64,000 nucleotides of DNA from an uncultured bacterium (GTDB lineage: Bacteria > CSSED10-310 > CAZUFC01). Positions 37,629 to 59,431 of this stretch are shown in pieces. The notes below the pieces were generated by a model. The model worked only from the letters and a program-made list of their open reading frames with translations. It was not told the DNA's origin and did no database searches. Each line of letters begins with the position of its first letter. Positions within the stretch are counted from its first letter, which is position 1. A program made the translations under genes and the position numbers. The stretch is from positions 46,570 through 110,569 of the forward strand of contig CAZUFC010000013.1 in assembly GCA_964619725.1 (NCBI GenBank), written 5' to 3'.

Positions 37629-38882
37629 ATGAATCGAACGAGTTTATTCGCTCAAGTTACAATTTTTTGCATCATCACCGCCGGCGGGCTCCTTCAAGAA
37701 ACTGATGCAAAAAACCTTGATCTGATTAATGAAAAATCCCTATCTGAAATCAGGGAATCAGACAAATTGACGACATCAGACCAGGAATACTACATCGCTG
37801 ATTTTTTCATTTCTGAAACAGGGATTTTAAGAGAAACAGAAACGCCGACATATCTTCCCAGCGTTACGCCCTCCGCTCCTCCTTCATTCACTTCCACGCC
37901 CATTCCCACAATAACAGTTTCCCCTTATTGGAGTCCAACCGGAGCAATTACTCCGCCTACCGAAACTCCGGTTGAAAGTCCCACTTTTTCATCAACTCCT
38001 ACGGCCTTTTTCACCCATTCCCCCACCAGTACGAATACTGCAACGCCGACACCGACTCCAACGGGTTTTTCAACGGTTACTGAAGTTCCTACCTTGCCGA
38101 CTGCAACGGCCACAGCGAGCCCCACTTTTTCATCCACGGGGACGCCATATCCGACTACAAGCGTTACTTTAACAAATACGCCCGATGAAACGGCGACGCC
38201 TACGCCCACAGTATCCTCATCAGGAACTCCTGTTCCGACGTTAATCCCGACAAATGCCTTCACCTTTACATCCACTCCGACAGAGACAATGACGTTTTCG
38301 CCTACCGGCACGGCAGTCGTTACCCCCACCGCTGAATTAACCCGGACAATCGCTCCTACGATGAGTCAAACTCCAACGCCACGCATTACGTTGACGCCCA
38401 CATTGCCTCCTTTAGGGGTTATTCTTGAGTTATCGGAAGAGGACGATTTTTGTTTCAGGACGGGCGATCTTTTTCGACTCGATGCCTGGATAAGCAATCC
38501 AGGTCCCGAAGAGTATGAAGGAGTTCCTTTCGTTGTATTGCTTGATATTGACGGAGAGTATTGGTGGTATCCGGAGTGGAGCAGTGATTTTACATATGCA
38601 CAGGTTGAGTTGCCGAGTGGAACGAAAAAGTTGAGGATTCTGGACTTTATTTGGCCTGACGATCCTTCGGAAGAGGATGACGTGAGAATATACGCCGCTC
38701 TTTTAAATTATGAATTGACTGATTTTTTCGCTCCTGAGGGGGATTACGCCGGATACGATTATGTTGAATTCGACTATGGTTGCGATTGTCCCGGTTTTCA
38801 TCCGGAACAGAAAGAGGGTCTTTTGAGAGAACGGACTGAAGCGAATTCGCCGGCCCGGGAGCTCCCGTTTTTCACTCAATAG
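37629..38882 (+). CDS. Secreted Thr/Pro-rich protein with globular C-terminal domain
   Basis: Signal peptide, about 190 aa of TPT/SPT repeats, C-terminal 'LGV.L...F..GD...L.....NPGP....P.FV.LD..G.YW..P.W'. Confidence 0.75.
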   Translation: MNRTSLFAQVTIFCIITAGGLLQETDAKNLDLINEKSLSEIRESDKLTTSDQEYYIADFFISETGILRETETPTYLPSVTPSAPPSFTSTPIPTITVSPYWSPTGAITPPTETPVESPTFSSTPTAFFTHSPTSTNTATPTPTPTGFSTVTEVPTLPTATATASPTFSSTGTPYPTTSVTLTNTPDETATPTPTVSSSGTPVPTLIPTNAFTFTSTPTETMTFSPTGTAVVTPTAELTRTIAPTMSQTPTPRITLTPTLPPLGVILELSEEDDFCFRTGDLFRLDAWISNPGPEEYEGVPFVVLLDIDGEYWWYPEWSSDFTYAQVELPSGTKKLRILDFIWPDDPSEEDDVRIYAALLNYELTDFFAPEGDYAGYDYVEFDYGCDCPGFHPEQKEGLLRERTEANSPARELPFFTQ

Positions 38883-38895
38883 CGCATTCTAGAGG

Positions 38896-40620
38896 ATGAT
38901 GGATTCTCCAAAATCGAGTTCATACGTTAAGTCTTTTCGTGAATCGGTCGTACTTTTCGTCATAGTCATCGTTTCTCAATCGGTCGTATTTCATAAGGTA
39001 CCTTATGATAATGTTGCGAGCAGAACGAATATCGTATTATCGGTAATCAATCATGGAACTTTTCAAATCGATGCCTATCATGAAAATACTTTGGATAAAG
39101 CATTTCGATCGGGGCGCTATTTCTCCGACAAGGCGCCCGGAGGAGCGCTTCTGGCAGCATTGCTTCTTTATGTCCCGGTAAAAACGCTGAATTTTACCGG
39201 ACTGCAAATTAGCGATGAAGTCGTCAGGTACTTTGCGAGAATCCTGGTCGTCTCATTCCCCGTCGGCATCATGGCGCTGCTGATGTTTAATTGGGCTTCG
39301 GACCTGGTAAAATCTCACTCATTGCGTATGCTGCCTGTCTTGTTTTATGCGCTTGGAACACCGGCTTATCCTTACTCCACTTTATTCTATGGGGCTCAAA
39401 CAGCGGCGGCTTTCGGTTTTTTTGCTTTTTTACTCATAATTATGCCGCTCGGCAACAAAGAAGGGCCGAATAAAAAGTTCTTTTATCGAGGTTTCCTGGC
39501 CGGCGCTTTAGCTTCTTTTTCCGCTGCTTCCGTTTATCCTGCTGCCCTGCTATGGATACTCTGTTTTCTATTTACAATTTTTCTGAAAAAGTCTAAAGCT
39601 TCAATCCTTTCTTTCATCGCGGGTTCGATCCCGATAGCTCTGGGAGTCGCCTTATACCATCAAATCTGTTTCGGAGGCATCCTGCAGACGGGTTATCAGT
39701 ATAAATTTCTGGAACATCATGCTCAGATGCATTCGGAAGGTTTTTTCGGCATTACTGTTCCTTCTGCCGCCGCCCTCTGGGGTATAACCTTCAGCGTTGA
39801 AAAAGGTTTATTTTATTACGCGCCCCATTTGCTCTTCGGTATCGCCGGACTGTTTTACGTTCTTAAATCCAAATGGAAATCCGCAGCGCTGTTTTGCATT
39901 ACCATTATTTTTACCTTCATCCTTTTCAACTCCGCATTCCAGGATTGGAAGGCCGGATGGACCTTCGGACCAAGACATCTGCTGCCCGCCATTCCTTATA
40001 TGACAATAGGCAGCTTTTTTTTCCTCAAAGTCGCATCAACAAGAAAAAATCCGGAAAAATATTTCCTCATCTCAGTCTACTTTTGCCTGGGTATCGTCTC
40101 CATGTTTCCGACGTTTCTCGCCGCCTTTACTACTCCGCATATACCCCTCTCTTTTGAAAGCCCGGTTTTTGAATTTCTTGTCCCAATTTTCATGAAAGGA
40201 TACAGCGTCATTTCTCCGGTCAGTATGGCCGGTTTGCCTCCCCAGTCGGCGCCTGCTATTTTGTTCGTTTTCATCGCTTTGCTTATGCTTTATACCTTTT
40301 GGAAAAACAATGTCTTTAGACGAATTAACAGCGAGCGATTGTTAGGATTCCTCGCCGGCATTCTAACCGTTTCGATTTTTTTTGGACTTACAGCTTATTA
40401 TTCGTTTAAAATCGCAAAGCCCGATAATTTTGAACGTAAAGGAGCGCGCGCCCAGGTGTTTTTGGCTGGAAAGATGTGGGATGAAGCGGAAACTGAAGCA
40501 AGAGAGATATTACGGCAAAATCAGAATGTCAGGTTCGCGTGGGAAATACTGGCGATTTGCAGAGAGAAAAAAAAGGAAAAGGAGAATAATAATGAAATAT
40601 ATAGGCGCGAAAATCAATAA
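38896..40620 (+). CDS. Multi-pass GT-C-like glycosyltransferase with C-terminal TPR-like helix
   Basis: Periplasmic 'N..SR', 'D.A..G.Y.SDKAPG', 'GT..YPYS', 'GL..Y.P', 'W..GW.FGPRHLLP'; more than 10 TM helices. Confidence 0.7.
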   Translation: MMDSPKSSSYVKSFRESVVLFVIVIVSQSVVFHKVPYDNVASRTNIVLSVINHGTFQIDAYHENTLDKAFRSGRYFSDKAPGGALLAALLLYVPVKTLNFTGLQISDEVVRYFARILVVSFPVGIMALLMFNWASDLVKSHSLRMLPVLFYALGTPAYPYSTLFYGAQTAAAFGFFAFLLIIMPLGNKEGPNKKFFYRGFLAGALASFSAASVYPAALLWILCFLFTIFLKKSKASILSFIAGSIPIALGVALYHQICFGGILQTGYQYKFLEHHAQMHSEGFFGITVPSAAALWGITFSVEKGLFYYAPHLLFGIAGLFYVLKSKWKSAALFCITIIFTFILFNSAFQDWKAGWTFGPRHLLPAIPYMTIGSFFFLKVASTRKNPEKYFLISVYFCLGIVSMFPTFLAAFTTPHIPLSFESPVFEFLVPIFMKGYSVISPVSMAGLPPQSAPAILFVFIALLMLYTFWKNNVFRRINSERLLGFLAGILTVSIFFGLTAYYSFKIAKPDNFERKGARAQVFLAGKMWDEAETEAREILRQNQNVRFAWEILAICREKKKEKENNNEIYRRENQ

Positions 40621-41254
40621 GCCTAGATTCGCCGTTTTCATCGCTTCTTCGATCAGCCTCATGCTGCTGGCGGGGTGCGCTGCAGCCTTGAGCGGTAAGA
40701 TTAAAGAAAGAGAAACCGCATATAATCTATCGGGAATCAAGGTCGTTATTGAATCGGAAAACAAAGTGCAGGAAACTTATTCCGATCAGAAAGGCAATTA
40801 CAATTTCACCAATCTCAAAAAAGGCGAATACGATATTAAAATCGAAGACAATCAGGATTATCTTCCATTTCATGCGGTTATAAGAATTCAAAAACCTGAA
40901 AAAATGATTAAGGACATCGAATTGAAACCGATGCCGTCCATTAAAGGAAAAGTCTTTGACGGCGCCATGCCGGTAAACGGAATGAAGGTGGAATTGTGGT
41001 CGATCGATAGAAAAAATCATTTAAATTCAATCACTGACGCCAAAGGGGAATTTCAATTTCCAGGTCTTCAACCAGGCGATTACTACCTGGAAGCTTTCAA
41101 TAAGACAAAATCCTGCCGGCGAAAAGTGACGCTGGAATACGGAACGACAGTCCTGGACCTCTTTCTGGAAAAACCTGTCCGATTGGAACCGGGAAAAGTT
41201 CAAGGAAGAGAAAGTTCATTGCTAGGTACAGTTCCGCATCGCGACAGCAATTAA
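40592..41254 (+). CDS. Lipoprotein with two carboxypeptidase-regulatory-like (prealbumin fold) domains
   Basis: AAGGAG RBS, LAGC lipobox, two 'T(S)D..G.Y/F.F..L..G.Y' repeats. Confidence 0.8.
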   Translation: MKYIGAKINKPRFAVFIASSISLMLLAGCAAALSGKIKERETAYNLSGIKVVIESENKVQETYSDQKGNYNFTNLKKGEYDIKIEDNQDYLPFHAVIRIQKPEKMIKDIELKPMPSIKGKVFDGAMPVNGMKVELWSIDRKNHLNSITDAKGEFQFPGLQPGDYYLEAFNKTKSCRRKVTLEYGTTVLDLFLEKPVRLEPGKVQGRESSLLGTVPHRDSN

Positions 41255-41266
41255 TTCCAATTACGG

Positions 41267-42967
41267 GTGAAAGTAATCATGGAAAACCAGCAGACTTCCC
41301 GAATAATACTAAAGATTGTTTTAAGCGCCGTTATATTGTTCTCTGTAACAATGACGATCGTTTTGGGCTTGCGCTTCTGGGATAAGCATACTTCAAAGGA
41401 AAAAAGGGCGGAACGCTATGATCAGAAACAACCGGTAAAGAGTGATTTTCTTTTTAAATTGGAACTCAAAGGGAAAACTGACCGATTGTCTGAAACCAGA
41501 ATCTTTTTCGAAGGAAGGGAAGTAGACAAGAAAGATTATGTAAAAAAAAGCGGAGATCGTTTTTTGTGCAATTTTCCGTTTGCCGCTTATTCTGCTGAAC
41601 TGAAAAAATATGCTCTCGTGTTTGATCCGGACGACAACGGAAAGGAACTCACTTTTCAGGAATATTTTGAGACGGATATAGACAAAGGCGAATATTTTTT
41701 TTCTAAAAACTTTGAAGATATTTTTCCGGAAGCCCTGAAAGATGAGACTAAAACTGTGAAGGAAAGAGCGGAGAGCGTTCCGGTAAAAATGAAAGACCAG
41801 GAAGAGAAGAAAAAGGTGACTGAAGCAGAGTCAGAGGTAGCTGATGGTGCGGACGAATCCCGGATGCGCCGGCCTGAACGAAAGTCGCCGCCCGCTAGCC
41901 CTGCATTCACTGGAAAATTAAAATTATCTGTAAAAAACCGCGATACCGGTGAGGCGGTTCAAGGTGCGATCGCTTATTTGAAAAACGGAGAGGATTGGCG
42001 TGCCGTTTCGCCTGGAACGGATACAAGCGGTGTAACTGAAGTGAAAAATCTGCCGAATGCGCCCTTCCTTTTGTCAATCAGACGAGAGGGATATGAGGAT
42101 TACGAATTGAATATTGAAAAGAGCCGGGAAGATTTTAATGTTTTAATGAAAGAGAAAAAATGTCATCTGACGCTCAATATAGGACCTGTTTCAGCGCTTG
42201 TTAAATATCGAGGAATCGTCATAGGCGAATCTTCTCCGGGCCGGGATTTCATTCATGCTTTCCCATGCAGTATAATAAAACTGCAGATACACCCGACCGA
42301 CTCAGGAAAAGGATACGCTTCTGAAAAAAGAGAAATCGATCTCACCCAGGGAGACGTCACAAAGGAAGTGTTTCTTGTTGAAGATCACTATGAAACGGCG
42401 GAAAAGTTTTATGCTGAGGCGATGAAGACAAATGATATTAAGCTCTTCGAGCAGGCGGCCATACAATATGAACAGGTTCGAATGATAGGCGTTACTCATC
42501 ATGCTCGCAATAAATATTTAAACGCTCAGTATTACGCGGGACAGATATATGCAGAGCAATTGTTCGAGTATGATAAAGCGAGAAAAAGTTTCATGAAAAT
42601 AAGAGAGACGGATGCGCAGGCGAAGCCCACGATATATTACTACCTGGCGAAGATCGACTTTGAATCGAACAATTACAGAGATGTATTCGAACATATGAAC
42701 GATTTGAATTCATGTTCGGAATATCTGCCGGACGAACAAAGGATGGAAATTTTATTCCGCACAAAATATTATCTGGCGAAAAGCGCATTCGAGATGTGGA
42801 AAACTTCTGATGATGCGGGGAAAGATAAAATGCGGAAAAATGCAATCTATCATTTGAAAGACGCCATGGTGTATTACGATAAAGAACTTTCAGCGGACCA
42901 GAATGCGGCAGCGAGATTAAAAAGATATAATGATGAATTGAAAGAACTGTTGAATTTTCTCGAATAG
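41267..42967 (+). CDS. Membrane-anchored protein with prealbumin/PEGA-like domains and C-terminal TPRs
   Basis: N-terminal TM; 'TD.SG...V..L', 'I.REGYE'; TPR-like 'AQYYAGQIY...Y.KA...F'. Confidence 0.65.
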   Translation: MKVIMENQQTSRIILKIVLSAVILFSVTMTIVLGLRFWDKHTSKEKRAERYDQKQPVKSDFLFKLELKGKTDRLSETRIFFEGREVDKKDYVKKSGDRFLCNFPFAAYSAELKKYALVFDPDDNGKELTFQEYFETDIDKGEYFFSKNFEDIFPEALKDETKTVKERAESVPVKMKDQEEKKKVTEAESEVADGADESRMRRPERKSPPASPAFTGKLKLSVKNRDTGEAVQGAIAYLKNGEDWRAVSPGTDTSGVTEVKNLPNAPFLLSIRREGYEDYELNIEKSREDFNVLMKEKKCHLTLNIGPVSALVKYRGIVIGESSPGRDFIHAFPCSIIKLQIHPTDSGKGYASEKREIDLTQGDVTKEVFLVEDHYETAEKFYAEAMKTNDIKLFEQAAIQYEQVRMIGVTHHARNKYLNAQYYAGQIYAEQLFEYDKARKSFMKIRETDAQAKPTIYYYLAKIDFESNNYRDVFEHMNDLNSCSEYLPDEQRMEILFRTKYYLAKSAFEMWKTSDDAGKDKMRKNAIYHLKDAMVYYDKELSADQNAAARLKRYNDELKELLNFLE

Positions 42968-42974
42968 AGATTAA

Positions 42975-44369
42975 ATGAGATTACCTAACGTGATAACCTT
43001 TTTAAAACATGGTAGACAGTCGGTCTTCAGCAATTTTAGAGAATTTTCTTTACTCCGTGGGTGGGGCGGAGCGCCGGCATACCGTTTTAAGGGGGGACAA
43101 TCTTTACTTTTTTTGATCGTTTGCTGTTTTGCGGTAATTATGTTTTTCGTTGAGGCATCGTTCTGCAACGATCAGAGTATTGTTGGCGAATTACGGTGGG
43201 ATGAGAGTTTGGGCTATTCATATGCACAGTTGATGGAAAGACCTGTTATTATGAAGAGCATAGAGTTGTCGGCTGCTTCTCCTGAAACGGGACGGATACA
43301 GCATCCGAAGTTTTCTCCTTCAGGACGGCATATAGCTTTTGAAATTGAAAGAGAGGAAACGATAGAGCTATGGATGTTAGACCTTAAAACGAAAAGTAAA
43401 CAGAAAGTAGAGACGGAGAGCAGCGGATACTTCGATTCTAATGAAATAACGGGAGATATGGATTGGAGTCCGCTTATCATTAATGACAAGGAATGGTTCG
43501 TATTCGTTCACAAGGACAGATCGGAAAACGTGTTATTGCTCAATTACATAAAGGACGGCGTTATCGGTTCTTCTCATCAAAGATTAACTGGGATAGAAAA
43601 CCGTTTTTTGCTCTCCTCTCCCCAATGGAGTTCGGATGCGGAATTTCTGATTTTCTATTCGACTCAATCCGGATTCGGGGATATTTTCATCATTCCGGAT
43701 ATAAAAAAGAATCTCTCAGGCGCCGGCGTAAATTTTGTTGAGACGAAAAGATTGAGAGGTCAGAGCAGCGATCTGGAACCGGAATTATGGCCCTCCATCA
43801 TCAAAGATGATACGGGAAACTATTTCGCGTTCTATTCCTCGCCAGGCGAAAATGATAATTATCAGATCAGGCAACTTTGGTTTTCAAGGAATAAAATACC
43901 CAAAAAACAGAAGGATTACCTTTTTTGGGGTGATCCGCTTTATGATGCCGTCAGGCCGTCTTATATCGATAAGCACAAGCTGGCTTTTTACAGAACAAGG
44001 AGAAGTTTAAGCCGGTCTACCCATACGACCATATGCATTTTTGATCCTGATGAACGAAAACTGATTGAGATTGCTGAAAAAGAGGGAGTCGTTCCCAATA
44101 AAAGAAGGGGGCCGTTGGTTTTTGAAGGCGGTATGCTTTATACGGGAGCGAGTAAATTTGAAAACAATCCCATCGTGATGACGGATTTTAATGGAAATGA
44201 AATTTTTCGATATGATAAAACGGTTCATAATTTTGACATTGACGTTTATCACGATGTGAAGGCTAATTGTTTTAAACTGACCTACACAGCAGTAAAAAAT
44301 GGAAAATCCTGTCTTTTCCTGGCCTTTCTCAATATAAACGACAGGATGGGAATATCCGGGAAGCCTTGA
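42975..44369 (+). CDS. Exported TolB-like (PD40) beta-propeller protein
   Basis: 'HPKFSPSGRHIAF', 'DWSP', 'PQWSSD..FL.F.S...G..DIF'; true start may be downstream. Confidence 0.7.
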   Translation: MRLPNVITFLKHGRQSVFSNFREFSLLRGWGGAPAYRFKGGQSLLFLIVCCFAVIMFFVEASFCNDQSIVGELRWDESLGYSYAQLMERPVIMKSIELSAASPETGRIQHPKFSPSGRHIAFEIEREETIELWMLDLKTKSKQKVETESSGYFDSNEITGDMDWSPLIINDKEWFVFVHKDRSENVLLLNYIKDGVIGSSHQRLTGIENRFLLSSPQWSSDAEFLIFYSTQSGFGDIFIIPDIKKNLSGAGVNFVETKRLRGQSSDLEPELWPSIIKDDTGNYFAFYSSPGENDNYQIRQLWFSRNKIPKKQKDYLFWGDPLYDAVRPSYIDKHKLAFYRTRRSLSRSTHTTICIFDPDERKLIEIAEKEGVVPNKRRGPLVFEGGMLYTGASKFENNPIVMTDFNGNEIFRYDKTVHNFDIDVYHDVKANCFKLTYTAVKNGKSCLFLAFLNINDRMGISGKP

Positions 44370-44370
44370 A

Positions 44371-45822
44371 ATGGAAAAAATTTTCACTAGCCTTTTGACC
44401 GTTGCGGCTCTCTTTAGTTTCTTGATCATTGATCAGGAATTTTACGATCCGAAAAGTCCTGTCGATAAAATGATTTACGACAATAATTACGAAGAGGCGT
44501 TGACGGAATTGAATAATGATGGACTCGAACAATGGATTCTTAAGGGCAAAGCCTTATATGAACTTGGTCTTATTTATGAAAGAATTTTCCGCTTGACGGT
44601 CAATGAACAACTGCAGGCTTACGAAATTTCACTCAGAGAAAATCACGATTTTTACCTTAATTTTTTCTATGCCAGATGCCTTTTCCTGAATGGAAAATAT
44701 GAAAAATCTGCAGCTCTTTTCGATAAGCTGGTTGCCGCTCCTGAATCATCAGATGATCCTGAAATCAAAAAATTGCTGCTGGTCTGGCGCTCCGCTTCCT
44801 CAATATTGCGTGATTCCTCCGCTCAAAACGAAAATTTCAGAAAAGAACGCCTGCTGTTGAAAGAAATAAAAAAAGAATTTATTGAAACGGATAACATCAT
44901 GTGCGAAGAAAAAAGCTTCCGTTCATCTCTTCTTCGAAGCTTTGAAAAAAGAAACGTTTTCTGGTGCAATTCTAAGCAAAGGAGTTACGACAAGTATCCG
45001 CTCGCCTCTGAAGAAAACATCACGCCATGGAAACCTGTTTTCGAAATAGAATCCGTTCGATATTTCGACCCGCTTTCTCTTTACGCATCATCTGTGAATT
45101 ATTTCCGGTCAGCAGCAATAAATTTTCAACGAGCTGCAGATGCTTGCGCCAATCACACCTGCTCTGAAAAATTCCTGCCGGTCCTGAAGGAAAGAACAGC
45201 TTTAAGTTATTTCAAATCCAGGGATTATTCGAAAGCTGAAGCGTATCTAATTGGCTCCGGTTCTGTCCGTTCGCGCATCATAAAAGAATGGATTGAAGTA
45301 ACTAAAAAAGAACACGTGGATGAAACTGCTGTAAGAAAAATTATAAAATCCGTTATGGAGAACGACGTTCCCCTTGCAGACTGGAAGCTTCTGCTCGAAT
45401 TCGTTCATTCCGTTTCATTCGATAAGATTTCGCTTGGTGAATTGTCGGAGAAATTTGAGGAGATGATCAAAAAATCAGACCTGCAGCATCAATTACCGAA
45501 AAGATTTCAACATGAAATGGCCGATTATCTTATGCTGCTTTATAAAAATGAAAATACGGATGACTTGTTGAGAAACCTGAAGAAATATAATCCGGAATTC
45601 TCCGGAGATATCTGGAAAAATAATGACCCTTTATTCCTCATTACCTGGTCCTCGCTTATTGCTCTTTCTGATCTTTCGAGCGACTACACCCTGAAACAGG
45701 GAAATTTGATGAGCGTAAAATCAAAAATGCCGGCTTTAATTCCTATGATTGAAGCTTTTCAGGTCATACTGGAGAACAAATTCAAAGGCGCCGCGCAAAA
45801 ACCGCGGTACGATTCAAATTAA
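44371..45822 (+). CDS. Exported TPR-like helical protein
   Basis: Signal segment; 'KGKALYELG', 'YARCLFLNGKYEKSAALF', 'ALSYFKSRDYSKAE'. Confidence 0.6.
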   Translation: MEKIFTSLLTVAALFSFLIIDQEFYDPKSPVDKMIYDNNYEEALTELNNDGLEQWILKGKALYELGLIYERIFRLTVNEQLQAYEISLRENHDFYLNFFYARCLFLNGKYEKSAALFDKLVAAPESSDDPEIKKLLLVWRSASSILRDSSAQNENFRKERLLLKEIKKEFIETDNIMCEEKSFRSSLLRSFEKRNVFWCNSKQRSYDKYPLASEENITPWKPVFEIESVRYFDPLSLYASSVNYFRSAAINFQRAADACANHTCSEKFLPVLKERTALSYFKSRDYSKAEAYLIGSGSVRSRIIKEWIEVTKKEHVDETAVRKIIKSVMENDVPLADWKLLLEFVHSVSFDKISLGELSEKFEEMIKKSDLQHQLPKRFQHEMADYLMLLYKNENTDDLLRNLKKYNPEFSGDIWKNNDPLFLITWSSLIALSDLSSDYTLKQGNLMSVKSKMPALIPMIEAFQVILENKFKGAAQKPRYDSN

Positions 45823-45849
45823 TTGAGTTCAACTAACAGACGATTTGTC

Positions 45850-50353: not shown

Positions 50354-50356
50354 TCA

Positions 50357-51370: not shown

Positions 51371-52446
51371 ATGATCCGTTGATTCAAATAGAGAACCTGA
51401 AAATTTTTTTCGTCAATCGAAATATCTTTATAAGGGCCGTTGACGGTATTTCTCTTATAATCCGAAAAGGCGAAAGGTTCGGTCTTGTCGGCGAATCCGG
51501 CAGCGGTAAAAGCATGACGGCCGCTGGGATTATGGGTCTTATTTCAGGTTTGCCAGGAATCATCGAAGGCAGAATTTTTTTCCAAAACTTGAACCTTCTG
51601 AAAAATTTAGAAAGATATTGCCGGATTGAAAAAAAAGAGGGGCGGCTTGTTATCAAAAAAAAAATCAACACCTGGCAAAAAATACACGACAAAACAATGA
51701 AGGGGGTGAGAGGAAAAAAAATAGCCATGGTGTTCCCTCATGCAACGGCTTCATTAGCGCCGTATTTAACTGTCGGAAATCAAATATCTGAATCGCTCAG
51801 ACGACATCAATTATTATCTTCAAATGATTCTGCCGAAAGCGTCATCTTGGATTGGCTCAATAAGATGGGTTTTGAGAATCCAGATTTAATAGCAAAAGCT
51901 TACCCAAATCAATTAAGCGGAGGTATGAATCAGAGAATAGCGATAATACTGAGCCTGCTGACCAAACCTGATTTACTTATTGCCGACGAACCGACGACTG
52001 CTGTCGATCCTATAACGGAAGCCCGTATAATGAAACATTTGGACAACCTGCAAAAGCAGTTCGGCTTTTCTTTGTTTCTTATCTCTCATAATATTGCCCT
52101 GATAAAAAAAATGACTGATATGATCGCTGTAATGTATAGGGGCAGAATCCTGGAAATGGGTCCCACGAAGGAAATAACGGCTGAAATGATTCCGAAACAT
52201 CCTTACACGGAAAAACTCCTGAATGCCGTTCCCAAAATGCAAAAAAAGAAAAAACATTTTCCAGAGAAAAAAGCTGAAAAGTTCTCTTCGGAAGATGTTT
52301 CTGATGCCTACGGGTGTCCGTATTTTGCCGATTGCGAATATGCTGAATCCGGGGATTCCGCAATGCCCTGCGACCGTGAGCCGCCGGTTCCCTTTTATGT
52401 GAATCCCGATCATTATATATGTTGTCAGAAGTTTGGAAGACGTTGA
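51367..52446 (+). CDS. ABC ATP-binding protein (OppD-like)
   Basis: GESGSGKS, 'YP.QLSGGM.QR', 'ADEPTT', 'ISHN', 'HPYT..L', Cys-rich C-terminus; ATG overlaps upstream TGA. Confidence 0.93.
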   Translation: MNDPLIQIENLKIFFVNRNIFIRAVDGISLIIRKGERFGLVGESGSGKSMTAAGIMGLISGLPGIIEGRIFFQNLNLLKNLERYCRIEKKEGRLVIKKKINTWQKIHDKTMKGVRGKKIAMVFPHATASLAPYLTVGNQISESLRRHQLLSSNDSAESVILDWLNKMGFENPDLIAKAYPNQLSGGMNQRIAIILSLLTKPDLLIADEPTTAVDPITEARIMKHLDNLQKQFGFSLFLISHNIALIKKMTDMIAVMYRGRILEMGPTKEITAEMIPKHPYTEKLLNAVPKMQKKKKHFPEKKAEKFSSEDVSDAYGCPYFADCEYAESGDSAMPCDREPPVPFYVNPDHYICCQKFGRR

Positions 52447-52448
52447 GA

Positions 52449-53429
52449 ATGATAATGCAAGCGCCCTTATTGATTATTCATGATTTGACGAAATATTATC
52501 AGCAAAAAACAGGCCTGGGATTCCATGCGCGAAGAAAAATGGTCTTGAATCGAATCAATATGGAAGCGCATGCTGAAGAGATAGTCGGAATAGTCGGCGA
52601 AAGCGGAAGCGGGAAAACGACTCTTTTACGTTGCGCGACGAAGTTGATCCCCGCTGATGAAGGGGAGGTTATATTTAAGGGTGTGAAACTTTTTGAAATT
52701 CCGGAGAAAAAATTAAGGAGCATTCGGAAGGAAATTAGAATGATCTTTCAGGACCCTTTGAGTTCATTGAATCCTGGAATGACGATTGAAGAGACTCTTC
52801 GGGAAGCGGGTAAAATTTATTTGAAAGAGAATGATTTAAAAGACAGAAGTAACTTTAATGAATATTTGGAAATGGTGCGTTTATCGCCGCGTCATTTGAA
52901 TAAGTACCCTTTTGAGCTGAGCAGCGGCGAATTGCGCCGGGCCGGATTAGCGAGAGCGATAATGGGGAATCCTTCTCTCATTATGGCCGACGAACCTGTA
53001 TCCGGCATCGATGCTCCGCTGCAATCCGATATCGTGGAATTATTTTTGAGATTGCAGCGAACTCTCAAATTGAGTATGCTTTTTGTGTCTCACAATATTG
53101 CTTTGGTGAAAAGCATCAGTGATCGCATAGTCGTAATGTTGAAGGGAAGGATTGTAGAGATGGGCAGAAATGAGTTTTTTAGTGAAACGAACAGTCGGCA
53201 TCCTTATACGCGGAGACTGATAAAGTCTGTGAACTGGGAGCCGGAAAGTTACGATACGTCTATTGAAGCAGGAAGAAGTAGAGAAATGGAAGAAGCTTTT
53301 TGCCCTTTCTATGACAGATGCAAGCAAAGAAAAGAGTCAATCTGTCGAGAAGCCGGATATGAATTGATTGAAATAGAGGAGGGACATTGGTGTAGTTGTC
53401 CTCTGGAATTCAGCGAATGTTCATTGTAA
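52449..53429 (+). CDS. ABC ATP-binding protein (OppF-like)
   Basis: GESGSGKT, 'MIFQDP.SSLNP', 'YP.ELSSGE..R', 'ADEPVS', 'HPYT', 'CPF..RC'. Confidence 0.93.
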   Translation: MIMQAPLLIIHDLTKYYQQKTGLGFHARRKMVLNRINMEAHAEEIVGIVGESGSGKTTLLRCATKLIPADEGEVIFKGVKLFEIPEKKLRSIRKEIRMIFQDPLSSLNPGMTIEETLREAGKIYLKENDLKDRSNFNEYLEMVRLSPRHLNKYPFELSSGELRRAGLARAIMGNPSLIMADEPVSGIDAPLQSDIVELFLRLQRTLKLSMLFVSHNIALVKSISDRIVVMLKGRIVEMGRNEFFSETNSRHPYTRRLIKSVNWEPESYDTSIEAGRSREMEEAFCPFYDRCKQRKESICREAGYELIEIEEGHWCSCPLEFSECSL

Positions 53430-53446: not shown

Positions 53447-53977
53447 ATGATGAAATTAGAGATCATGGAGGGAAAAGTGAAAGGAAAGAGGAGTATTATT
53501 TTATTAATTATCGGGATAATGGCTTTTGGCTGTGCGGCATCGCGAAAAGCGGAATATGGCTTTCGGGTTATTGAAGACAAGTCGGGCATATATGGAGGAA
53601 TCCGTATCGATCCGGGGAGTGATGTTCCTTTGATACCGTCCGAAAAGCGAACGGCGTTGGATTGTTCCATCAACAACGAGGCTGTATTGTATCTTGAATT
53701 TTACGGCCGATGCGTCGGATATAACGTCGTTACTGAATGGCTGGACCCTCAAGGCTCGGTTTTTACGAGCAACGAAAACAAAATACCGCCGGAGAAAAGC
53801 GGAAAAAAGGGCTACTGCAAATATTCCTTTTGGGAAAAAATGGACCTGACTTTTGTGCGCGGCCTGGTGCCGGAGGGTCAATGGCGGGTGAGAATTACCT
53901 TCAATCCCATACTTTTGGATGACACGGATTTAAGACCTGTAACGAAGGAATTCCCTTTTCAGTTGGAATGCAGATAA
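53447..53977 (+). CDS. Hypothetical lipoprotein
   Basis: 'AFGC' lipobox; Ig-like 'W.DP.G', 'G.W.V.I'. Confidence 0.65.
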   Translation: MMKLEIMEGKVKGKRSIILLIIGIMAFGCAASRKAEYGFRVIEDKSGIYGGIRIDPGSDVPLIPSEKRTALDCSINNEAVLYLEFYGRCVGYNVVTEWLDPQGSVFTSNENKIPPEKSGKKGYCKYSFWEKMDLTFVRGLVPEGQWRVRITFNPILLDDTDLRPVTKEFPFQLECR

Positions 53978-53986
53978 ATAAGCGTA

Positions 53987-55570
53987 ATGAGGTTAAAAAT
54001 GAATCGAAATAAAGCATTAATCACAACAATCGTTATTGTTATGGTATTAGTATTGACGTCAGGGGCTGAAATGCAATTTGAAGAGACGATGAACATCATC
54101 CAGCCTTCTACCATCAACGAACTGAGAAGTGGTTATTGGATCAGGTCGCGAATTCTACCGATAAAGATAGAAGTTCGCCCTTGGTCGACGATCCGCAATG
54201 TTACGATGTTTTTCCATGAGCTGCCGGGAGGCGAGGAACAATTTATCGAATTGCGATTTGAAAAAGAAGATTATCAATTTTTCGGCTCTTTGGACAGTTC
54301 GGAGCTGGGCGCGGAAATAGAATTTTATTTTGTGGGATATGACGAAAGACAACGGGAAATCGCCCGATCGGACACTTACAGAATCCAATTTATCGCCGAT
54401 CCGATTATGACGGACTTCAGTCTTTTAGAATCGACGAAGATAAGAAGCGGCGCTTTCTGGAAAATCGGCCTGGGTTTGATAGCGGGCGCCGGCGTATATT
54501 TCGCTGCGGATTCAATGATCGATGATAATGAAGCCCCGGATGTCTCCTTGACGGCTGACAGAACAGCGATCAATACGGGAGAAACGGTTACTTTGAGGGC
54601 AGAAGCCGATGATCCTGACGGAAGCGACGGAAAAATAGAATTCAAGTGGCGCTCTGATCCCGGCGGGACATTTTTTGATGAATCCGGGAACGCGATACCG
54701 GATGCTGGTGAATATTTTCGGGGGAGGAATGTGGTCAAATGGTCGGATACCGATCTCGGATTTTTCGCTGATAGCATGGATCGAAAAATTTCAAGGCGTA
54801 GTAACCTTGGCGATGTAGTATCACAAGATAAAAGTTCCACGTTGAAAAACGCCTCGGACCTTAATCGAGCAAGAATCCAAAGCAGTATTGCCCCAGTAAA
54901 AAATGCGTCGCTTCGTGAAAATTCAATTTCTCCATATAAAAGGTCGATGATGAATTCTTCGGAACAAGTTTACGAGATAAAGGTCAGCGTCAAAGATGAA
55001 GATGGTGAAAAAGCATCAGCCGGAATTACCATCTCCGTTCAATACGAAGAATCCACTCAAACCCCTACCTTTACCCCAACTCCTCAGCAGTCGGAGACTT
55101 ATACTCCCACTCCGACGCCGGAAGATGATTATTCTCCCACTCCGACCGCAACGCCTACCGGAACGTTTATACCTCCATCCGTAACCCCCACTCCATCACC
55201 AACCCCGACTCCTACATCGTCTCTGTGCTGGATTTATTCAGAAGCGCTGTTCACGCAAAATGATTTTCAAAAACGGGACTTGTTGGGAATAGTTCGCCTT
55301 ATGTTCACTTCTCAATCCGGAAAAGAGGTTTATGATTATCAGTTTAAATCGGAAGAACCCAGTCGCTATTATTACTGGATAAGAAGAAGCGTAAATGTCG
55401 GATATTATCGCATCAACGCATGGCTGGATTTCAACGGCAATGGAGAGAGAGAAGAAAACGAAGCCCAGGTATTGCATAATAACGGTAACCCAGTCAATTT
55501 AGGTCCGAATGAACAACAGAATCCGTATCGGATAATTCTATCTTTTCCGAATGGGAGCGTTCCGGATTAA
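53987..55570 (+). CDS. Secreted multidomain protein with PKD/Ig-like domain and Thr/Pro linker
   Basis: Signal peptide, internal Gly-rich hydrophobic segment, 'GETVTL.A.A.DPDG....F.W', TPTP repeats, 'D.NGNG'. Confidence 0.65.
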   Translation: MRLKMNRNKALITTIVIVMVLVLTSGAEMQFEETMNIIQPSTINELRSGYWIRSRILPIKIEVRPWSTIRNVTMFFHELPGGEEQFIELRFEKEDYQFFGSLDSSELGAEIEFYFVGYDERQREIARSDTYRIQFIADPIMTDFSLLESTKIRSGAFWKIGLGLIAGAGVYFAADSMIDDNEAPDVSLTADRTAINTGETVTLRAEADDPDGSDGKIEFKWRSDPGGTFFDESGNAIPDAGEYFRGRNVVKWSDTDLGFFADSMDRKISRRSNLGDVVSQDKSSTLKNASDLNRARIQSSIAPVKNASLRENSISPYKRSMMNSSEQVYEIKVSVKDEDGEKASAGITISVQYEESTQTPTFTPTPQQSETYTPTPTPEDDYSPTPTATPTGTFIPPSVTPTPSPTPTPTSSLCWIYSEALFTQNDFQKRDLLGIVRLMFTSQSGKEVYDYQFKSEEPSRYYYWIRRSVNVGYYRINAWLDFNGNGEREENEAQVLHNNGNPVNLGPNEQQNPYRIILSFPNGSVPD

Positions 55571-55593: not shown

Positions 55594-57525
55594 ATGATTT
55601 TATGCCCTAAATGCAATTTTAAAAACAACGATGACGCTGATGCATGCTATCATTGCGGTTACAAGTTTTCTGATGAAACGATAAGCATTGACTCGGCAGG
55701 CGATTCGGCTCAACCCGATACGAATACCAAGGATCAGCGCGTTCCCGATACCCCTGTCAAATTGCCCAGTAATCCTTTTGGGTTGAAGGGCGACGAACTC
55801 CTGGCCGGTCGTTACAAGGTTTTAAAAATGCTGGGACGGGGCGGCATGGGCGCTGTTTTCAAGGTCCTGGATACCATGATCGGCGAAATCGTCGCCCTGA
55901 AACTCATGAACCCGGTCATCACTTCTGACGAAGAATATGTTCATCGGTTCATGCGCGAGGCTAAACTAGCGCAACCGATGATGCATGAAGGAATCATGCG
56001 GATTTATCACATCGATAGGATAAGGTTGGCGATTGATGGAAAAGAGACGGAAACCCACTACCTGGTCATGGAGTATCTGGAAGGCGTCAATCTTACTTCC
56101 TGGATGAAACAACAACAGGAACCCGTGCCGGTCCCGCTTGCTTTGGATTTCTGTCGTCAATTATGCCGAATATTGGATTATGCGCATAAATTCATGATCC
56201 ACAGAGACATAAAACCCAGCAACATAATGGTCGGCAAAAATAATAAGATAACATTAATGGACTTCGGAATAGCTAAAACCGAAGATGCAACGCTTTTGAC
56301 CAAAAGCGGCTGGTTTATCGGAAGCCCCCAGTATGCCGCCCCCGAACAATTCGAAGATGCCGCCGCCGTTACTCCGGCTTCGGATATTTATTCCATCGGC
56401 GTTATCCTTTATGAGCTTCTCACGGGGCTTAAACCTCGAGGCGTGACCGCTCTGCCGACCGATTTGAGGAATGATGTGCCGAAAAAACTCGACGATATAA
56501 TTCGCTGCTCTCTTCAGAATGATCCCCAAGTCAGATATCAGACAGCAGATGAAATGCTGGAAGCGCTGGATACCGTCAATGAATCAATCGACAGGAGCTA
56601 CGATGAAAATTCGATTCAAGGCCAGGAAGCAAAAAAACCCAAAAGAACAAAATACCGGGAAGGAAAAAAAGAACTTCTTAAACTGAGGAATCTGTTCGTT
56701 ATGTCTGCTTTTTCCATGCTGATAATGGTTGCTGCTGTTTTTTTCTTTCTGAAGGATGGAGACGACTGGTCTTTAGGACGAAGCAGCATCGCCGAATCCC
56801 AGGATTTCTTTGATGCGCAGGAGTATGAAAAGTATAAAATTTTTCACCTCGGGAAAGGCGTTAACCTGGAAACCGCGCTCATACCGCAAGGAAAAATTAC
56901 AATTACATCGACGGACGCCCCAGGCGCAAACACTGGATCGAATGGACCAACAGAGTTGTACGTTCCTCGACCGTTTTATCTCGGCAAACATGAAGTGACT
57001 CAGGCTCAATATGAACTTGTTACGGGAAATAACCCATCCCAAAGAAAAGATTGTCCTGAATGCCCGGTTGAAAATGTCGATTATGAGGAATGTTTGCTGT
57101 TTACTAAAGGACTAAACTCGATTATCGATAATTATGCCTTTCGACTGCCTACTGAGACGGAATGGGAATACGCCTGCAGAACTGACAGCGCAACAGATTC
57201 ATTTGATGATCCGAATCTGATGTTTTGGTGGAAGGAAAATGCGGAAGGAAAAACTCAGCCGGTGGGACAGATGAAAGCAAATGCATGGGGATTGAGCGAC
57301 ATGCTGGGCAATGTGTGGGAGTGGTGCGCTAACCTCAAAACTGCGGGAAAGCAAGGCGGAAACTCTAATGCTGCGGTTACAGCTATAAGGGGCGGTTCGA
57401 GCTGGAGTGATCTTGACGGCGTTAATCCTTCCAGCAGAATCCTTATCAACTATTCTGAAAAAAGGCCGAATCTTGGTTTCCGGATTCTGGCGGAGAAAAC
57501 AAAACCGGATCGAATCGACCGATAA
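55594..57525 (+). CDS. Hanks-type Ser/Thr kinase: zinc ribbon - kinase - TM - FGE-sulfatase (SUMF1-like) domain
   Basis: CPKC..CYHC; GRGGMG, VALK, HRDIKPSN, DFG, APE; TM; 'EVT..QY', 'RLPTE.EWEYACR', 'N.WGL.DM.GNV.EW', 'RGGS', 'GFR'. Confidence 0.93.
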   Translation: MILCPKCNFKNNDDADACYHCGYKFSDETISIDSAGDSAQPDTNTKDQRVPDTPVKLPSNPFGLKGDELLAGRYKVLKMLGRGGMGAVFKVLDTMIGEIVALKLMNPVITSDEEYVHRFMREAKLAQPMMHEGIMRIYHIDRIRLAIDGKETETHYLVMEYLEGVNLTSWMKQQQEPVPVPLALDFCRQLCRILDYAHKFMIHRDIKPSNIMVGKNNKITLMDFGIAKTEDATLLTKSGWFIGSPQYAAPEQFEDAAAVTPASDIYSIGVILYELLTGLKPRGVTALPTDLRNDVPKKLDDIIRCSLQNDPQVRYQTADEMLEALDTVNESIDRSYDENSIQGQEAKKPKRTKYREGKKELLKLRNLFVMSAFSMLIMVAAVFFFLKDGDDWSLGRSSIAESQDFFDAQEYEKYKIFHLGKGVNLETALIPQGKITITSTDAPGANTGSNGPTELYVPRPFYLGKHEVTQAQYELVTGNNPSQRKDCPECPVENVDYEECLLFTKGLNSIIDNYAFRLPTETEWEYACRTDSATDSFDDPNLMFWWKENAEGKTQPVGQMKANAWGLSDMLGNVWEWCANLKTAGKQGGNSNAAVTAIRGGSSWSDLDGVNPSSRILINYSEKRPNLGFRILAEKTKPDRIDR

Positions 57526-57526
57526 A

Positions 57527-59431
57527 ATGAAATTTGAAATGACGCCGACCTATCGAGGGAAAGGAAAAAAAACAATGCTGAACTCGTGGGGAGATAAAAA
57601 TCCTTTTAAAGCGGTATTACACAATATGACCATCTGCGCAATTGCTTTTTTAACGTTTTTGGTTTTTATTTTCAATGATTGCTCAGCTCAAAATATAGAA
57701 AATCAAAAAAGCCCGACGCCCGATCCTACAGCTCCTCATCATGATACTCCTCAGCCGACGCCGACGGTTATCGCTTACGCCGTTGAAATAAATTCAATTC
57801 CTATGGAAGCGCATTTGTTCATTGACGACGTTTATCGGGGAAAAACACCAGCAAAAATTAAAGTGGCGCCTGAACGTCATGAACTGCGATTGGATAAAAA
57901 GGGTTATCTGGATGTAACGATGATCCTGGAAAAAGACGATATTTTTGAGGGTAACAGTTTCACTTTAAATTTGAATCCGGTTCCGGAACCCGAGCCGGCG
58001 GATGCCGCCCATAAAAACGCAACACCTACTCCGATACAAAGTCTGAGCTCAATAGGGCGCATTGAGGCTGCTGAACCGGAACAAAATTTCGTTAGAATAA
58101 ATTTTTATGAAAAGGGGATAGGAGGAAAGGGGGATTACCTGGAACTGACCGACAGGTACGATAATAAAATCGCACTATTGCAGATACTGTCTGTTGATCC
58201 GGAAAACGAAAAAATTGCTGATTGCGAGATTATCAAAATTGAAGACGACAAAGTCATTGATGAGAAATCGCTTGTGAAAATAAGGACTTCCGATATCCCA
58301 AGTATTTACCGGGTCAAACCTTCCGAACGATGGACCATGATTCAGGCTGATCCTTTTCATAGCGGCAGAATTAAATCGGATGTTAAACAGCCCTTCACCT
58401 ATAAGCTCAAAAAACGGATTAAATTTTCCAATGCCGTCGGTTTCGCGTATGATGAAGAACAAGTTTATCTTTGTAAAAAATTCGACAATCGAATATACAA
58501 GTATGATCTTAAATCCGGCAAAAGAAATGATAAAATAAAAATCAATGGATATATTCAGGGAATCCCTGCTTTGTATGAAAATCGGACTCTCGTCGCAACT
58601 TCAAAAGGCAAACTCTATTCAATCGATAAAAACGACATTCACAGGCTAAGATTTAAAGAGTTGCCGAAGACGGGCCGATATAATGAGTTCACTTCCATGA
58701 TAATCTATCGGGACATAGCTTTTTGGGGCTCAAAAAACGGCATGTTGTACGGAGTTCGATTGAATAAAGATGATGATTACATGTTTCTGAAAGCGGATGT
58801 TGGAGAACCCGTCGGATATTCGCCGGTAATCGTGGAAAATGATGTCGTTTGCGCAACGACTGAGGGAAAAATTTTCGGCGTAAATTTAGATGATCCCGGT
58901 AAAACCTGGAGCCTTAAAATCGAAGATGTCATTTCCGGAGAATTAACGGCTTTTAAAGATATCCTGTTGATCCCTTTGGAATCGGGAAGAATTTTCGCTT
59001 TGAATGTGAAGGAAAGAGAAAGCCGCAAATTCATTTCTAAGACTAAAATAAAAAGAAAAATGGAAATATATCCGATCTCCGGCCCGATAACGATTTATGA
59101 GGATCAGGTTTTATCCTGTTCCGATAATGGAATCATCACCTGTTATGAACTTTCTTTCAAAAACGGAAATATCTTCGCGCCAATGCGCTGGGAGGAAGAC
59201 CTGGAAAACGAAGTGGCGGGAAATTCAGTCATAGTCGGAGACTATTTATTCGTTCCCCTTAAACCCCGGGGCGTTTGCTGTTTTGATTTGAAAAAGGAAC
59301 AGAATCTCGGAATCGTCGCTCTTCCGTATAAAGGTAATTTTGTGAGTCTGACCGGACATCCCGGCGGTTTATTATTGCTGACAGACCAATTTTTGTACTT
59401 CTACAAAATAGAAGCGCTCAAGACGGATTAA
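57527..59431 (+). CDS. Exported PEGA-domain protein with PQQ/BamB-like beta-propeller
   Basis: PEGA 'I.S.P..A...ID..Y.GKTP.......H.L.L.K.GY'; repeats 'GS..G.LY', 'T..G..FG', 'G...AL'. Confidence 0.8.
   Translation: MKFEMTPTYRGKGKKTMLNSWGDKNPFKAVLHNMTICAIAFLTFLVFIFNDCSAQNIENQKSPTPDPTAPHHDTPQPTPTVIAYAVEINSIPMEAHLFIDDVYRGKTPAKIKVAPERHELRLDKKGYLDVTMILEKDDIFEGNSFTLNLNPVPEPEPADAAHKNATPTPIQSLSSIGRIEAAEPEQNFVRINFYEKGIGGKGDYLELTDRYDNKIALLQILSVDPENEKIADCEIIKIEDDKVIDEKSLVKIRTSDIPSIYRVKPSERWTMIQADPFHSGRIKSDVKQPFTYKLKKRIKFSNAVGFAYDEEQVYLCKKFDNRIYKYDLKSGKRNDKIKINGYIQGIPALYENRTLVATSKGKLYSIDKNDIHRLRFKELPKTGRYNEFTSMIIYRDIAFWGSKNGMLYGVRLNKDDDYMFLKADVGEPVGYSPVIVENDVVCATTEGKIFGVNLDDPGKTWSLKIEDVISGELTAFKDILLIPLESGRIFALNVKERESRKFISKTKIKRKMEIYPISGPITIYEDQVLSCSDNGIITCYELSFKNGNIFAPMRWEEDLENEVAGNSVIVGDYLFVPLKPRGVCCFDLKKEQNLGIVALPYKGNFVSLTGHPGGLLLLTDQFLYFYKIEALKTD

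Follow-up and report, generated by a model that had tools for sequence, protein, structure and literature searches.

A family-5 ABC importer encoded with a conserved set of periplasmic partner genes in an uncultured bacterium

Binding-protein-dependent importers are usually pictured as self-contained, with a binding protein, two permeases and two ATPases. In the Tol-Pal system with CpoB, the genes of a PD40 propeller and a TPR protein stand together with those of a lipoprotein and of a partner anchored in the inner membrane. The Opp importer brings in peptidoglycan peptides, and SH3b domains contact the stem peptide, as described in PMC9928106. Here we analysed a window of 64,000 nucleotides (positions 46570-110569 of contig C13 in the genome G000, from an uncultured bacterium), in which the stretch 37629-59431 is filled by 16 open reading frames (ORFs), g01 to g16, all on the + strand. 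The gene content of this run, compared across genomes, indicates that it is composite: the core at 40592-53429, which we call the kit and which includes both the partner genes and the genes of an ATP-binding cassette (ABC) importer, is a conserved module, and the rest consists of local additions. We consider it very probable that the kit is a conserved, so far undescribed module whose partners are inherited with the binding protein.

The kit was found in two other families of the window's candidate phylum (genomes G002 and G004). Throughout this work, absences mean not found with these queries, and the maps of compared loci were drawn with a crude ORF caller. In G002 (contig C517) a TPR gene, cut by the contig end, is followed by a PD40 gene, the gene of a family-5 substrate-binding protein (SBP5) with an SH3_3 insert, two permease and two ATPase genes, after which comes LpxC on the opposite strand. 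In G004 (contig C38) the order is a CarboxypepD_reg lipoprotein, a 1099-residue Zn-ribbon/TPR protein, a PD40 protein, a 504-residue protein, SBP5, two permeases and two ATPases, flanked on the opposite strand by SelB before and ArgG after. G000 itself carries two further copies. The one on contig C135 encodes a PQQ propeller, a CarboxypepD_reg lipoprotein, a CarboxypepD_reg/PEGA protein, a PD40 protein, a TPR protein and SBP5; it matches the window kit in hhalign comparisons (E 1.3e-25 and 1.1e-7) and carries no ABC membrane genes. The other, on C142, is a divergent third copy.

The kit also occurs in other phyla. The top match of the binding-protein scan was L044, a locus of a Fibrobacteria metagenome-assembled genome (MAG; G041), with the order TPR protein with a transmembrane (TM) segment, PD40, TPR, binding protein, small lipoprotein and ABC genes. 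PD40 orthologues (E below 1e-160) were present in 11 of 151 Fibrobacterota genomes, namely G041 and the 10 in which loci L100-L109 lie. In nine of the 11 loci the order is TM-TPR, PD40, TPR, SBP5, small CarboxypepD_reg lipoprotein and ABC genes, to the limits of their contigs; the contig of L108 ends inside SBP5, and spurious ORFs scramble the maps of L101 and L106, in which the PD40 gene is present. A profile of the g06 family was positive in 4 of 401 diverse genomes, including G482, which belongs to a third phylum. In that phylum the g06 family was found in 2 of 168 genomes, in both directly before a family-5 binding-protein gene, and G482 additionally has a TPR anchor and a PD40 propeller. 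A fragment in G323 is a candidate kit match. Finally, a metagenome scan with a 13-sequence PD40 alignment gave 62 loci. Eleven of them had the family-type propeller, always beside kit genes to the contig limits, and these kit loci were all Fibrobacterota-like; the other 51 were generic PD40 proteins with no kit gene near. Wherever the map resolves, the gene after the TPR-family gene is SBP5 (18 of 18 loci).

Comparison of family profiles between the window and Fibrobacterota supported the same conclusion, with E 1.6e-31 for the PD40 propeller g05 (hhalign probability 99.9, 315 columns), 1.6e-10 for g06 (415 columns) and 1.7e-9 for the anchor g04 against the TM-TPR family (136 columns). The lipoprotein g03 has counterparts in G004, in G000:C135 and in Fibrobacterota (hhalign E 1.6e-5 in the Fibrobacterota comparison, and 1.7e-6). 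Since g04, g05 and g06 are weak in Pfam, it is these family comparisons, and for g06 also an AlphaFold model, that secure their identities. The g05 protein has a Pfam PD40 hit of E 0.0035 and a match of E 1.2e-6 to the TolB propeller TIGR02800 (27.7 bits against a cut-off of 343), and it matches the PD40 protein of L044 by phmmer with E 3e-18. The g04 protein matches the 840-residue CarboxypepD_reg/PEGA paralogue of G000:C135 over 345 residues (BLASTP E 3e-7), a match that spans the CarbopepD_reg_2, PEGA and helical parts of the latter. The g06 model is all-helical (pLDDT 71, pTM 0.77); its Foldseek search returned generic TPR superhelices (Tom70/71, APC/C, OGT), none with E ≤ 0.001, and a stored family member in the ESM Atlas led to generic TPR clusters. 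The g06 family counts 157 representatives at E ≤ 1e-10 among 1.84 billion proteins, and all 10 members examined are named 'hypothetical protein'. The initial annotation, made from the sequence of this run, had called g05 a propeller, g06 a TPR protein and g04 a PEGA/TPR protein: the first two labels stand on the family profiles and the model, the third only by way of the C135 paralogue.

In support of these results, the binding proteins found with the kit form a clade of their own in trees that were all quick searches without bootstraps. In a FastTree tree of 97 rows, all 12 kit-context binding proteins, the C142 copy and a second G002 copy made up one group with support 100. An IQ-TREE search (LG+G4) of 54 rows gave SH-aLRT 99 for 17 kit-context proteins and the second G002 copy, and the group stayed intact, with support 99, when six Escherichia coli references were added (60 rows). 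OppA, MppA, DppA, SapA, NikA and YejA of E. coli all fell outside the kit clade; GsiB and Opp4A were not among the references. Outside the kit group there is a separate, well-supported clade with Elusimicrobiota, Clostridia MAG and Geobacter-like loci. In the Elusimicrobiota and Clostridia MAG loci (L021, L025, L028 and L076), two adjacent M16 peptidase genes precede SBP5; this pair occupies the position of the kit PD40 and TPR genes, and no kit proteins occur there. The Geobacter-like loci have one large TPR gene in the partner position. From these trees, therefore, the closest relatives of the ABC genes carry the partners, and ordinary operons lie one clade further out. Note also that in the three Elusimicrobiota M16 loci a PolyA_pol/CCA-adding-type gene comes after the ATPases.

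These data bear on the proposal of the initial annotation that the Opp-like transporter is more than a plain opp operon. This held, as the transporter is co-inherited with TPR, beta-sandwich/PEGA and propeller proteins across three phyla. The accompanying check of neighbourhoods and trees came out in favour for the nearest relatives, since the binding proteins of L029, L042 and L044, the three kit-carrying loci among the 80 gathered with the binding protein, group with that of the window, and against for the next clade out, which contains M16-linked or ordinary operons. By its parts (a family-5 binding protein, two BPD_transp_1 permeases and two oligo_HPY ATPases with intact motifs) the importer belongs to PepT. 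All ABC parts are under every curated NCBIfam cut-off: g08 scored best with Opp4A, at 106.8 bits against a cut-off of 650, followed by 83 against 393 for NikA, 57 against 1005 for DppA and 30 against 560 for SapA. In agreement with the initial annotation, no named system of this composition was found in NCBIfam or in the literature searched, supplements and papers without a CC licence being outside that scope.

Because the linkage has outlasted the divergence of three phyla and duplication within one genome, we argue that the partners are needed for the transporter's job. With moderate confidence, and judging from sequence comparison, we propose that the kit encodes a PepT-type importer that works with a periplasmic partner scaffold and whose ligand is most likely a peptide. 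In this model the partners g03 to g06 would build a scaffold in the periplasm and keep the binding protein at the wall or the outer membrane; alternatively, they would hand the ligand to the binding protein. The loaded binding protein would dock on the permeases, the first of which has an enlarged periplasmic loop, and ATP hydrolysis would then import the ligand, most likely a peptide. The loop of permease 1 and the insert of ATPase 1 may serve contacts with the partners. An SH3 domain sometimes accompanies the module, either fused into the binding protein or, in the window, on g07. The kinase g15 may sense a related envelope cue, outside the conserved system.

As to the ligand, the substrate is probably a peptide, because AppA is the best solved relative of the binding protein and the outgroup is peptidase-linked. 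The full-length match of g08 to Bacillus subtilis AppA (1xoc) has E 1.4e-37, and the putative peptide-binding protein 4oet follows with E 2.7e-21, with two unnamed family-5 proteins ranking between. The binding proteins of G002 and G004 share an insert of about 75 residues, which matches Pfam SH3_3 (E 4.9e-6) and the SH3 domains of g07 (hhalign E 2.5e-4). The SH3 domain is distributed in a complementary way: it lies in the binding protein where g07 is absent, and on g07 where the binding protein is without SH3. Because of this SH3 link and of the Opp/SH3b precedent, a wall (peptidoglycan stem) peptide is the leading single candidate, and the substrate is possibly derived from the cell wall.

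Several points weigh against this model and against the breadth of the conservation. The 80 genome loci were gathered with patterns derived from kit binding proteins, so the sample is biased around their clade, and the branch of the window's binding protein is long (1.3-1.4). Because the Fibrobacterota loci form one clade with 59-64% identity, there are some five to seven independent lineages and not twenty-nine. Absence elsewhere has to be read as not found, because a search with the single g05 sequence met only 2 of the 14 genomes of the phylum. The SH3 domain was absent from the kit loci of Fibrobacterota and of the third phylum, so the cell-wall link, if real, may not be general. Finally, family-5 binding proteins also carry oligosaccharides, nickel and opines, and a chitin-oligosaccharide binder is a solved relative of g08 (E 4.5e-16).

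Upstream of the kit, on the same strand, 8 of the 10 loci L100-L109 have genes for a protein of about 1270 residues, an Omp85/POTRA protein, a PEGA protein and a TolB_N-like protein. Examples are L103-L105 and L107-L109 (in L104, 12202-19943); the protein of about 1270 residues is without a Pfam match and the PEGA protein has two PEGA domains. This group is absent beside the kit in G041 (L044) and in all loci of the window's phylum. In G482 (L113, contig C208, 2461-10302) the kit PD40 and TPR genes are separated by an inserted gene, whose 2613-residue product has nine Invasin_D3/Big_1 repeats and ends in a FlgD_ig-like part.

A different interpretation, which we hold to be unlikely, is that the proteins form a Tol-Pal-type trans-envelope complex, with the ABC importer as its energy or sensing unit, that would act in outer-membrane tethering or surface-protein assembly and not in uptake. 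The anchor TPR protein would then be equivalent to TolA, the PD40 protein to TolB, the lipoprotein to Pal and the TPR protein to CpoB, a correspondence for which we see only a small chance. The partner set does parallel Tol-Pal part for part, the Omp85 group precedes the kit in most of the further Fibrobacterota loci, and surface-type genes accompany the kit, such as g01 and g14 in the window and the Ig-repeat protein of G482. However, all components of a type I importer, the binding protein included, are present without any sign of degeneracy; Pfam found no TolQ, TolR or OmpA-like Pal family in the cluster, and the Omp85 group is restricted as described above. Put in its strongest form, and with the same low expectation, the kit would be an ATP-driven counterpart of Tol-Pal: the anchor TPR protein, the propeller, the TPR superhelix and the lipoprotein would link the importer into a complex across the periplasm, and ligand capture or ATP hydrolysis would be coupled to wall, outer-membrane or surface-assembly events. 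The Omp85/TamB-like genes of Fibrobacterota and the kinase of G000 would be, just as improbably, its lineage-specific outputs.

Next in standing, and improbable, is that the importer takes oligosaccharides (cello-, chito- or other glycan oligomers) and that its partners are glycan-handling proteins. According to PMC6851124, oligosaccharide import by family-5 systems occurs in Thermotoga and Pyrococcus, and for Fibrobacter succinogenes proteomics led to the proposal that a family-5 protein acts in cellodextrin uptake. The chitin-oligosaccharide binder among the solved relatives and the many Fibrobacterota carriers fit this possibility. Against it, the best solved relatives are the peptide binders AppA and 4oet, no glycoside hydrolase was present in any kit locus scanned with Pfam, and none of the named Fibrobacterota carriers is F. 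succinogenes, all being uncultured MAGs.

The initial annotation had viewed the run as one envelope machine for signalling or assembly, made of all 16 genes and controlled by a Hanks kinase, and had already noted its tight packing. This packing was confirmed: after correction of four gene starts, neighbouring genes either overlap or lie at most 31 nt apart, with the widest gap between 47478 and 47510. The run is also among the three longest of 3,241 same-strand runs (gaps of at most 60 nt) across 137 contigs of at least 20 kb (7.4 Mb) of G000; the longest have 15, 13 and 13 genes by the crude caller, which splits the window cluster, one of the two 13s, at mis-started ORFs. However, phmmer (E ≤ 1e-4) found homologues of g01, g02, g07, g13, g14, g15, g16 and the PAP2 gene g00 in none of the 16 other kit loci, and LpxC in G002 and ArgG in G004, on the other strand, follow the ATPase genes. 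By these comparisons the genes before the core (g01, g02) and after it (g13-g16) are additions of this lineage, and g07 was present solely at the window locus. The 16 genes as one conserved system were thus not supported, and control by phosphorylation comes down to tight packing in one genome and a single adjacency of a kinase paralogue, because no g15 homologue was found in those 16 loci.

That adjacency counts in favour of a 16-gene machine. The closest paralogue of g15, with 61% identity and the same build of Zn-ribbon, kinase, TM segment and FGE domain, lies on contig C15 of G000, 4.6 kb from an operon for an NlpC/P60 lipoprotein, a YejA-like binding protein and two permeases (L110, G000:C15:59069-68254). 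Among the 32 kinases of this genome, only g15 and the C15 paralogue lie within 10 kb of one of its 7 SBP5 loci. An arithmetic estimate of chance gives about 0.6 such pairs in G000; moreover, an opposite-strand gene with a caspase domain separates the C15 kinase from the SBP5 operon, and the binding protein there is YejA-like and lies outside the kit clade in the tree. The C15 locus may serve the recycling of wall peptides, and a sensor kinase is encoded beside it. In G004:C250 (L017, 2511-13438), an Opp-like cassette (ATPase, permease, permease, ATPase) that has no gene for a binding protein is immediately preceded by genes for a kinase, an FHA protein, a PP2C phosphatase and an fn3/Ig protein. 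This locus was rejected as a further kit locus, having no kit proteins. Both loci are hints that link kinases with such transporters; both were noticed post hoc, and their transporters are outside the kit clade. The single machine of 16 genes is given a very low probability. In E. coli K-12 (L183, 2269979-2277889) yejABEF is preceded, at a distance of two genes, by mepS, which encodes an NlpC/P60 endopeptidase, a placement that echoes the NlpC/P60 gene before the YejA-like operon of C15.

As poorly placed as the 16-gene machine are an ordinary nutrient oligopeptide operon with unrelated neighbours, which the ordinary or peptidase-linked opp operons of the closest outgroup loci would suit, and a Sap-like importer of antimicrobial peptides in a lipid-modifying island, which would suit the PAP2, two GT-C and EptA/LtaS-like sulfatase-family genes around the cluster and a weak SapA match (E 2.4e-7): the binding-protein clade and the partners are inherited together in three phyla and in three paralogous copies, the junctions among g04, g05, g06 and g07 measure 0-12 nt, SapA and DppA of E. 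coli fall outside the kit clade, and the lipid-modifying genes are not conserved beside the kit.

The features of the run and its flanks are collected in Table 1. Domain labels come from Pfam and NCBIfam, 20 proteins of the window region having been scanned with Pfam. The moved starts are those of g03 (40592), g11 (51367), g12 (52449) and g16 (57527), in each case to the first Met that yields a lipobox, a signal or a standard N-terminus.

Table 1. Genes of the 16-gene run and of its flanks, with positions in the window and the basis of each description
Feature	Position	Strand	Basis
MetRS gene, flank upstream of the run	34505-36673	-	
g00, PAP2-family membrane phosphatase	36790-37443	+	Pfam PAP2_3 E 5.7e-13; 5 hydrophobic segments
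g01, secreted Thr/Pro-rich protein	37629-38882	+	no Pfam hit (E ≤ 0.01) or NCBIfam hit (E ≤ 0.001)
g02, polytopic membrane protein	38896-40620	+	at least 9 hydrophobic segments
g03, kit part 1, lipoprotein with two CarboxypepD_reg (prealbumin-like) domains	40592-41254	+	Pfam E 1.2e-16; lipobox LLAGC
g04, kit part 2, membrane anchor, beta-sandwich/PEGA-like middle and TPR-like C-terminal part	41267-42967	+	TM 17-35
g05, kit part 3, periplasmic PD40 (TolB-like) beta-propeller	42975-44369	+	family profile comparison
g06, kit part 4, TPR superhelix of about 480 residues, unnamed family	44371-45822	+	AlphaFold model
g07, secreted TPR protein with two C-terminal SH3_3 domains	45823-47478	+	Pfam SH3_3 E 3.5e-11, two stretches
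g08, family-5 substrate-binding protein, kit clade	47510-49135	+	Pfam SBP_bac_5 E 9.6e-54, 183 bits against a cut-off of 32
g09, permease 1	49148-50353	+	BPD_transp_1 at 223-379; TM1 18-36, TM2 205-223
g10, permease 2	50357-51370	+	BPD_transp_1 E 2.7e-13; 37% and 32% identity to G002 and G004 orthologues
g11, ATPase 1, OppD-like	51367-52446	+	ABC_tran and oligo_HPY; Walker A, LSGG and Walker B present
g12, ATPase 2, OppF-like	52449-53429	+	ABC_tran E 6.5e-30 and oligo_HPY; motifs present, signature LSSG
g13, small lipoprotein, no family	53447-53977	+	lipobox AFGC; no Pfam or NCBIfam hit
g14, secreted protein with Thr/Pro-rich linker	53987-55570	+	sole Pfam hit K319L-like_PKD E 0.0067
g15, Zn-ribbon, Hanks Ser/Thr kinase, one TM segment and periplasmic FGE-sulfatase-like domain	55594-57525	+	Pkinase E 7e-40; FGE-sulfatase E 1.3e-28
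g16, secreted PEGA and PQQ-like beta-propeller protein	57527-59431	+	PEGA E 1.9e-8; PQQ_2 E 3.5e-13
Sulfatase-family gene, EptA/LtaS-like membrane protein, flank downstream	59654-62002	-	
PMT_2 protein, GT-C-like, flank	62169-63698		

Most domain labels of the initial annotation were recovered by Pfam (the two CarboxypepD_reg domains, SH3_3 with TPR, the five ABC parts, kinase with FGE-sulfatase, and PEGA with PQQ_2), and its statement that the cluster has no peptidase or catabolic gene agrees with the lack of any Pfam or NCBIfam match to such families among the 16 proteins. The PKD-like label of g14 was not confirmed, the single Pfam hit being that of Table 1. Each non-ABC protein has one N-terminal hydrophobic segment, to be compared with the several of g02, and g03 and g13 carry a lipobox Cys.

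Within the importer, the periplasmic loop between TM1 and TM2 of permease 1 (g09) is enlarged to 168 residues. The best non-self match of g09 among 5.8 billion proteins has 30% identity, and it shares 38% identity with its 413-residue G002 orthologue. In g11 the ABC domain holds an insert conserved among orthologues in the alignment, and at its C-terminus (52315-52425) Cys 317, 323, 335 and 353 are invariant in three genomes of the window's phylum; the C-terminus of g12 is likewise Cys-rich. We take the g11 tail to resemble the tails of some OppD/DppD proteins, which are reported to bind a metal or a cluster.

Among the additions, the C-terminal domain of g01 (38380-38882) recurs in 212 ORFs of G000, g01 included. 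This domain, of about 115-160 residues, ends at a median of 1 residue from the C-terminus of proteins of 316-1368 residues (5th-95th percentile), and a Thr/Pro/Ser-rich linker often precedes it. It did not match the sorting domains of the type IX secretion system (T9SS), Por_Secre_tail and TIGR04183, and resembles an as yet undescribed sorting or anchoring domain at the C-terminus of a very large family of cargo proteins. With 56 bits (E 3e-15), the match of g02 to LA_3751/LA_3752, a putative glycosyltransferase family of NCBIfam, stays below the cut-off of 200, and g02 is a probable GT-C-type glycosyltransferase, which leaves the GT-C label of the initial annotation probable as well. No paralogue of g13 was found in G000. 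The g16 protein resembles the 769-residue PQQ propeller that heads the C135 locus (a weak hhalign match, probability 52, E 1.4e-4), and because such a propeller also heads that copy, g16 is possibly an optional accessory. As kin of the Fibrobacterota TolB_N-like, PEGA or small lipoprotein families, g13, g14, g16 and g01 were rejected for want of a profile match.

The kinase g15 has its catalytic motifs (GRGGMG81, HRD203, DFG223 and APE249) and a TM segment at 361-379. It scored 244.7 bits against the cut-off of 450 for the PASTA kinase family NF033483, its ectodomain being FGE-sulfatase-like and not of the PASTA type. Formylglycine-generating enzymes have a catalytic Cys pair after a conserved RGGS stretch; no Cys follows RGGS in the g15 ectodomain, so it lacks this mark of a formylglycine-generating enzyme. 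The neighbouring sulfatase-family protein is without a C/S-x-P-x-R motif in its sulfatase domain. Maturation of this protein by g15 was thus ruled out, as both the catalytic Cys pair and the target motif are absent. In the metagenome locus L175 these domain types are paired differently, with two generic PD40 proteins encoded a few genes ahead of three ORFs that resemble the kinase-FGE protein.

The PAP2 gene g00 stands 185 nt upstream of the run, outside the conserved kit, and is possibly co-transcribed with it. Genes that modify envelope lipids or glycans border the cluster: PAP2, the GT-C-like g02 and PMT_2 protein, and the EptA/LtaS-like sulfatase-family protein. Within 34000-64000 there were no Rfam families, tRNAs or tandem repeats, and promoter and terminator scans of the run gave counts near those of shuffled sequence. 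All + strand hairpins are intragenic except the one at 59493-59510, right after the g16 stop. Antisense ORFs of 110-154 residues sit entirely inside + strand genes, and we take them as spurious. The G000 assembly comprises 344 contigs with a total of 9.17 Mb, at a completeness of 90.9% and a contamination of 6.5%. The closest genomes of the collection, 13 in number, are related to it only at the level of the phylum. The window DNA was present in 4 microbial-mat runs, all of one study, and no RNA run was among those listed for it.

How does the kit compare with described systems? The BatE protein of the Bacteroides aerotolerance (Bat) operon has a TPR plus SH3 architecture, which g07 shares; the 20 proteins scanned include no MoxR ATPase, DUF58 or vWA protein. 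From Tol-Pal the window differs in that no TolB_N, MotA/ExbB (TolQ), ExbD (TolR), TolA or OmpA family is present among the 16 proteins, the Tol-Pal membrane unit being replaced by the ABC importer. A separate PD40 ORF on contig C58 of G000 (E 1.2e-33 to the family profile) is possibly that genome's own TolB. The M16-linked family-5 operons of Elusimicrobiota and the Clostridia MAG have the same ABC cassette, with M16 genes instead of PD40 and TPR genes. Opp, App and Dpp share the five-part build, and the solved binding protein closest to that of the window belongs to App; however, the window's binding protein lies in a separate clade, it comes with four co-inherited periplasmic partner genes, and the importer has the long loop in permease 1 and the conserved insert in ATPase 1. 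The same link between an Opp-type importer and SH3b occurs in MppA/Opp of E. coli and in OppABCDF with YkfC of Chlamydia, where the SH3b domain of YkfC contacts the stem peptide (PMC9928106). YkfC is an NlpC/P60-SH3b enzyme, whereas the SH3 domain of the kit is periplasmic and, instead of being part of a hydrolase, belongs to the binding protein or to its neighbour. MppA matches g08 weakly and distantly, and compared with peptidoglycan recycling systems the window cluster is without an amidase or NlpC/P60 gene in Pfam.

These comparisons also indicate what the kit could mean. If its partners form a scaffold or a hand-over chain, they would represent a new way to feed an ABC importer in diderm bacteria. 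With a wall peptide as its ligand, the kit would be a new means of recycling or sensing the wall in little-studied phyla. The g06 TPR family, which is without annotation, makes with the propeller family a simple two-gene marker for finding the system. Compared with the known systems, then, the novelty of this locus is a known transporter type, PepT, with a conserved, unnamed partner set and a binding-protein clade of its own.

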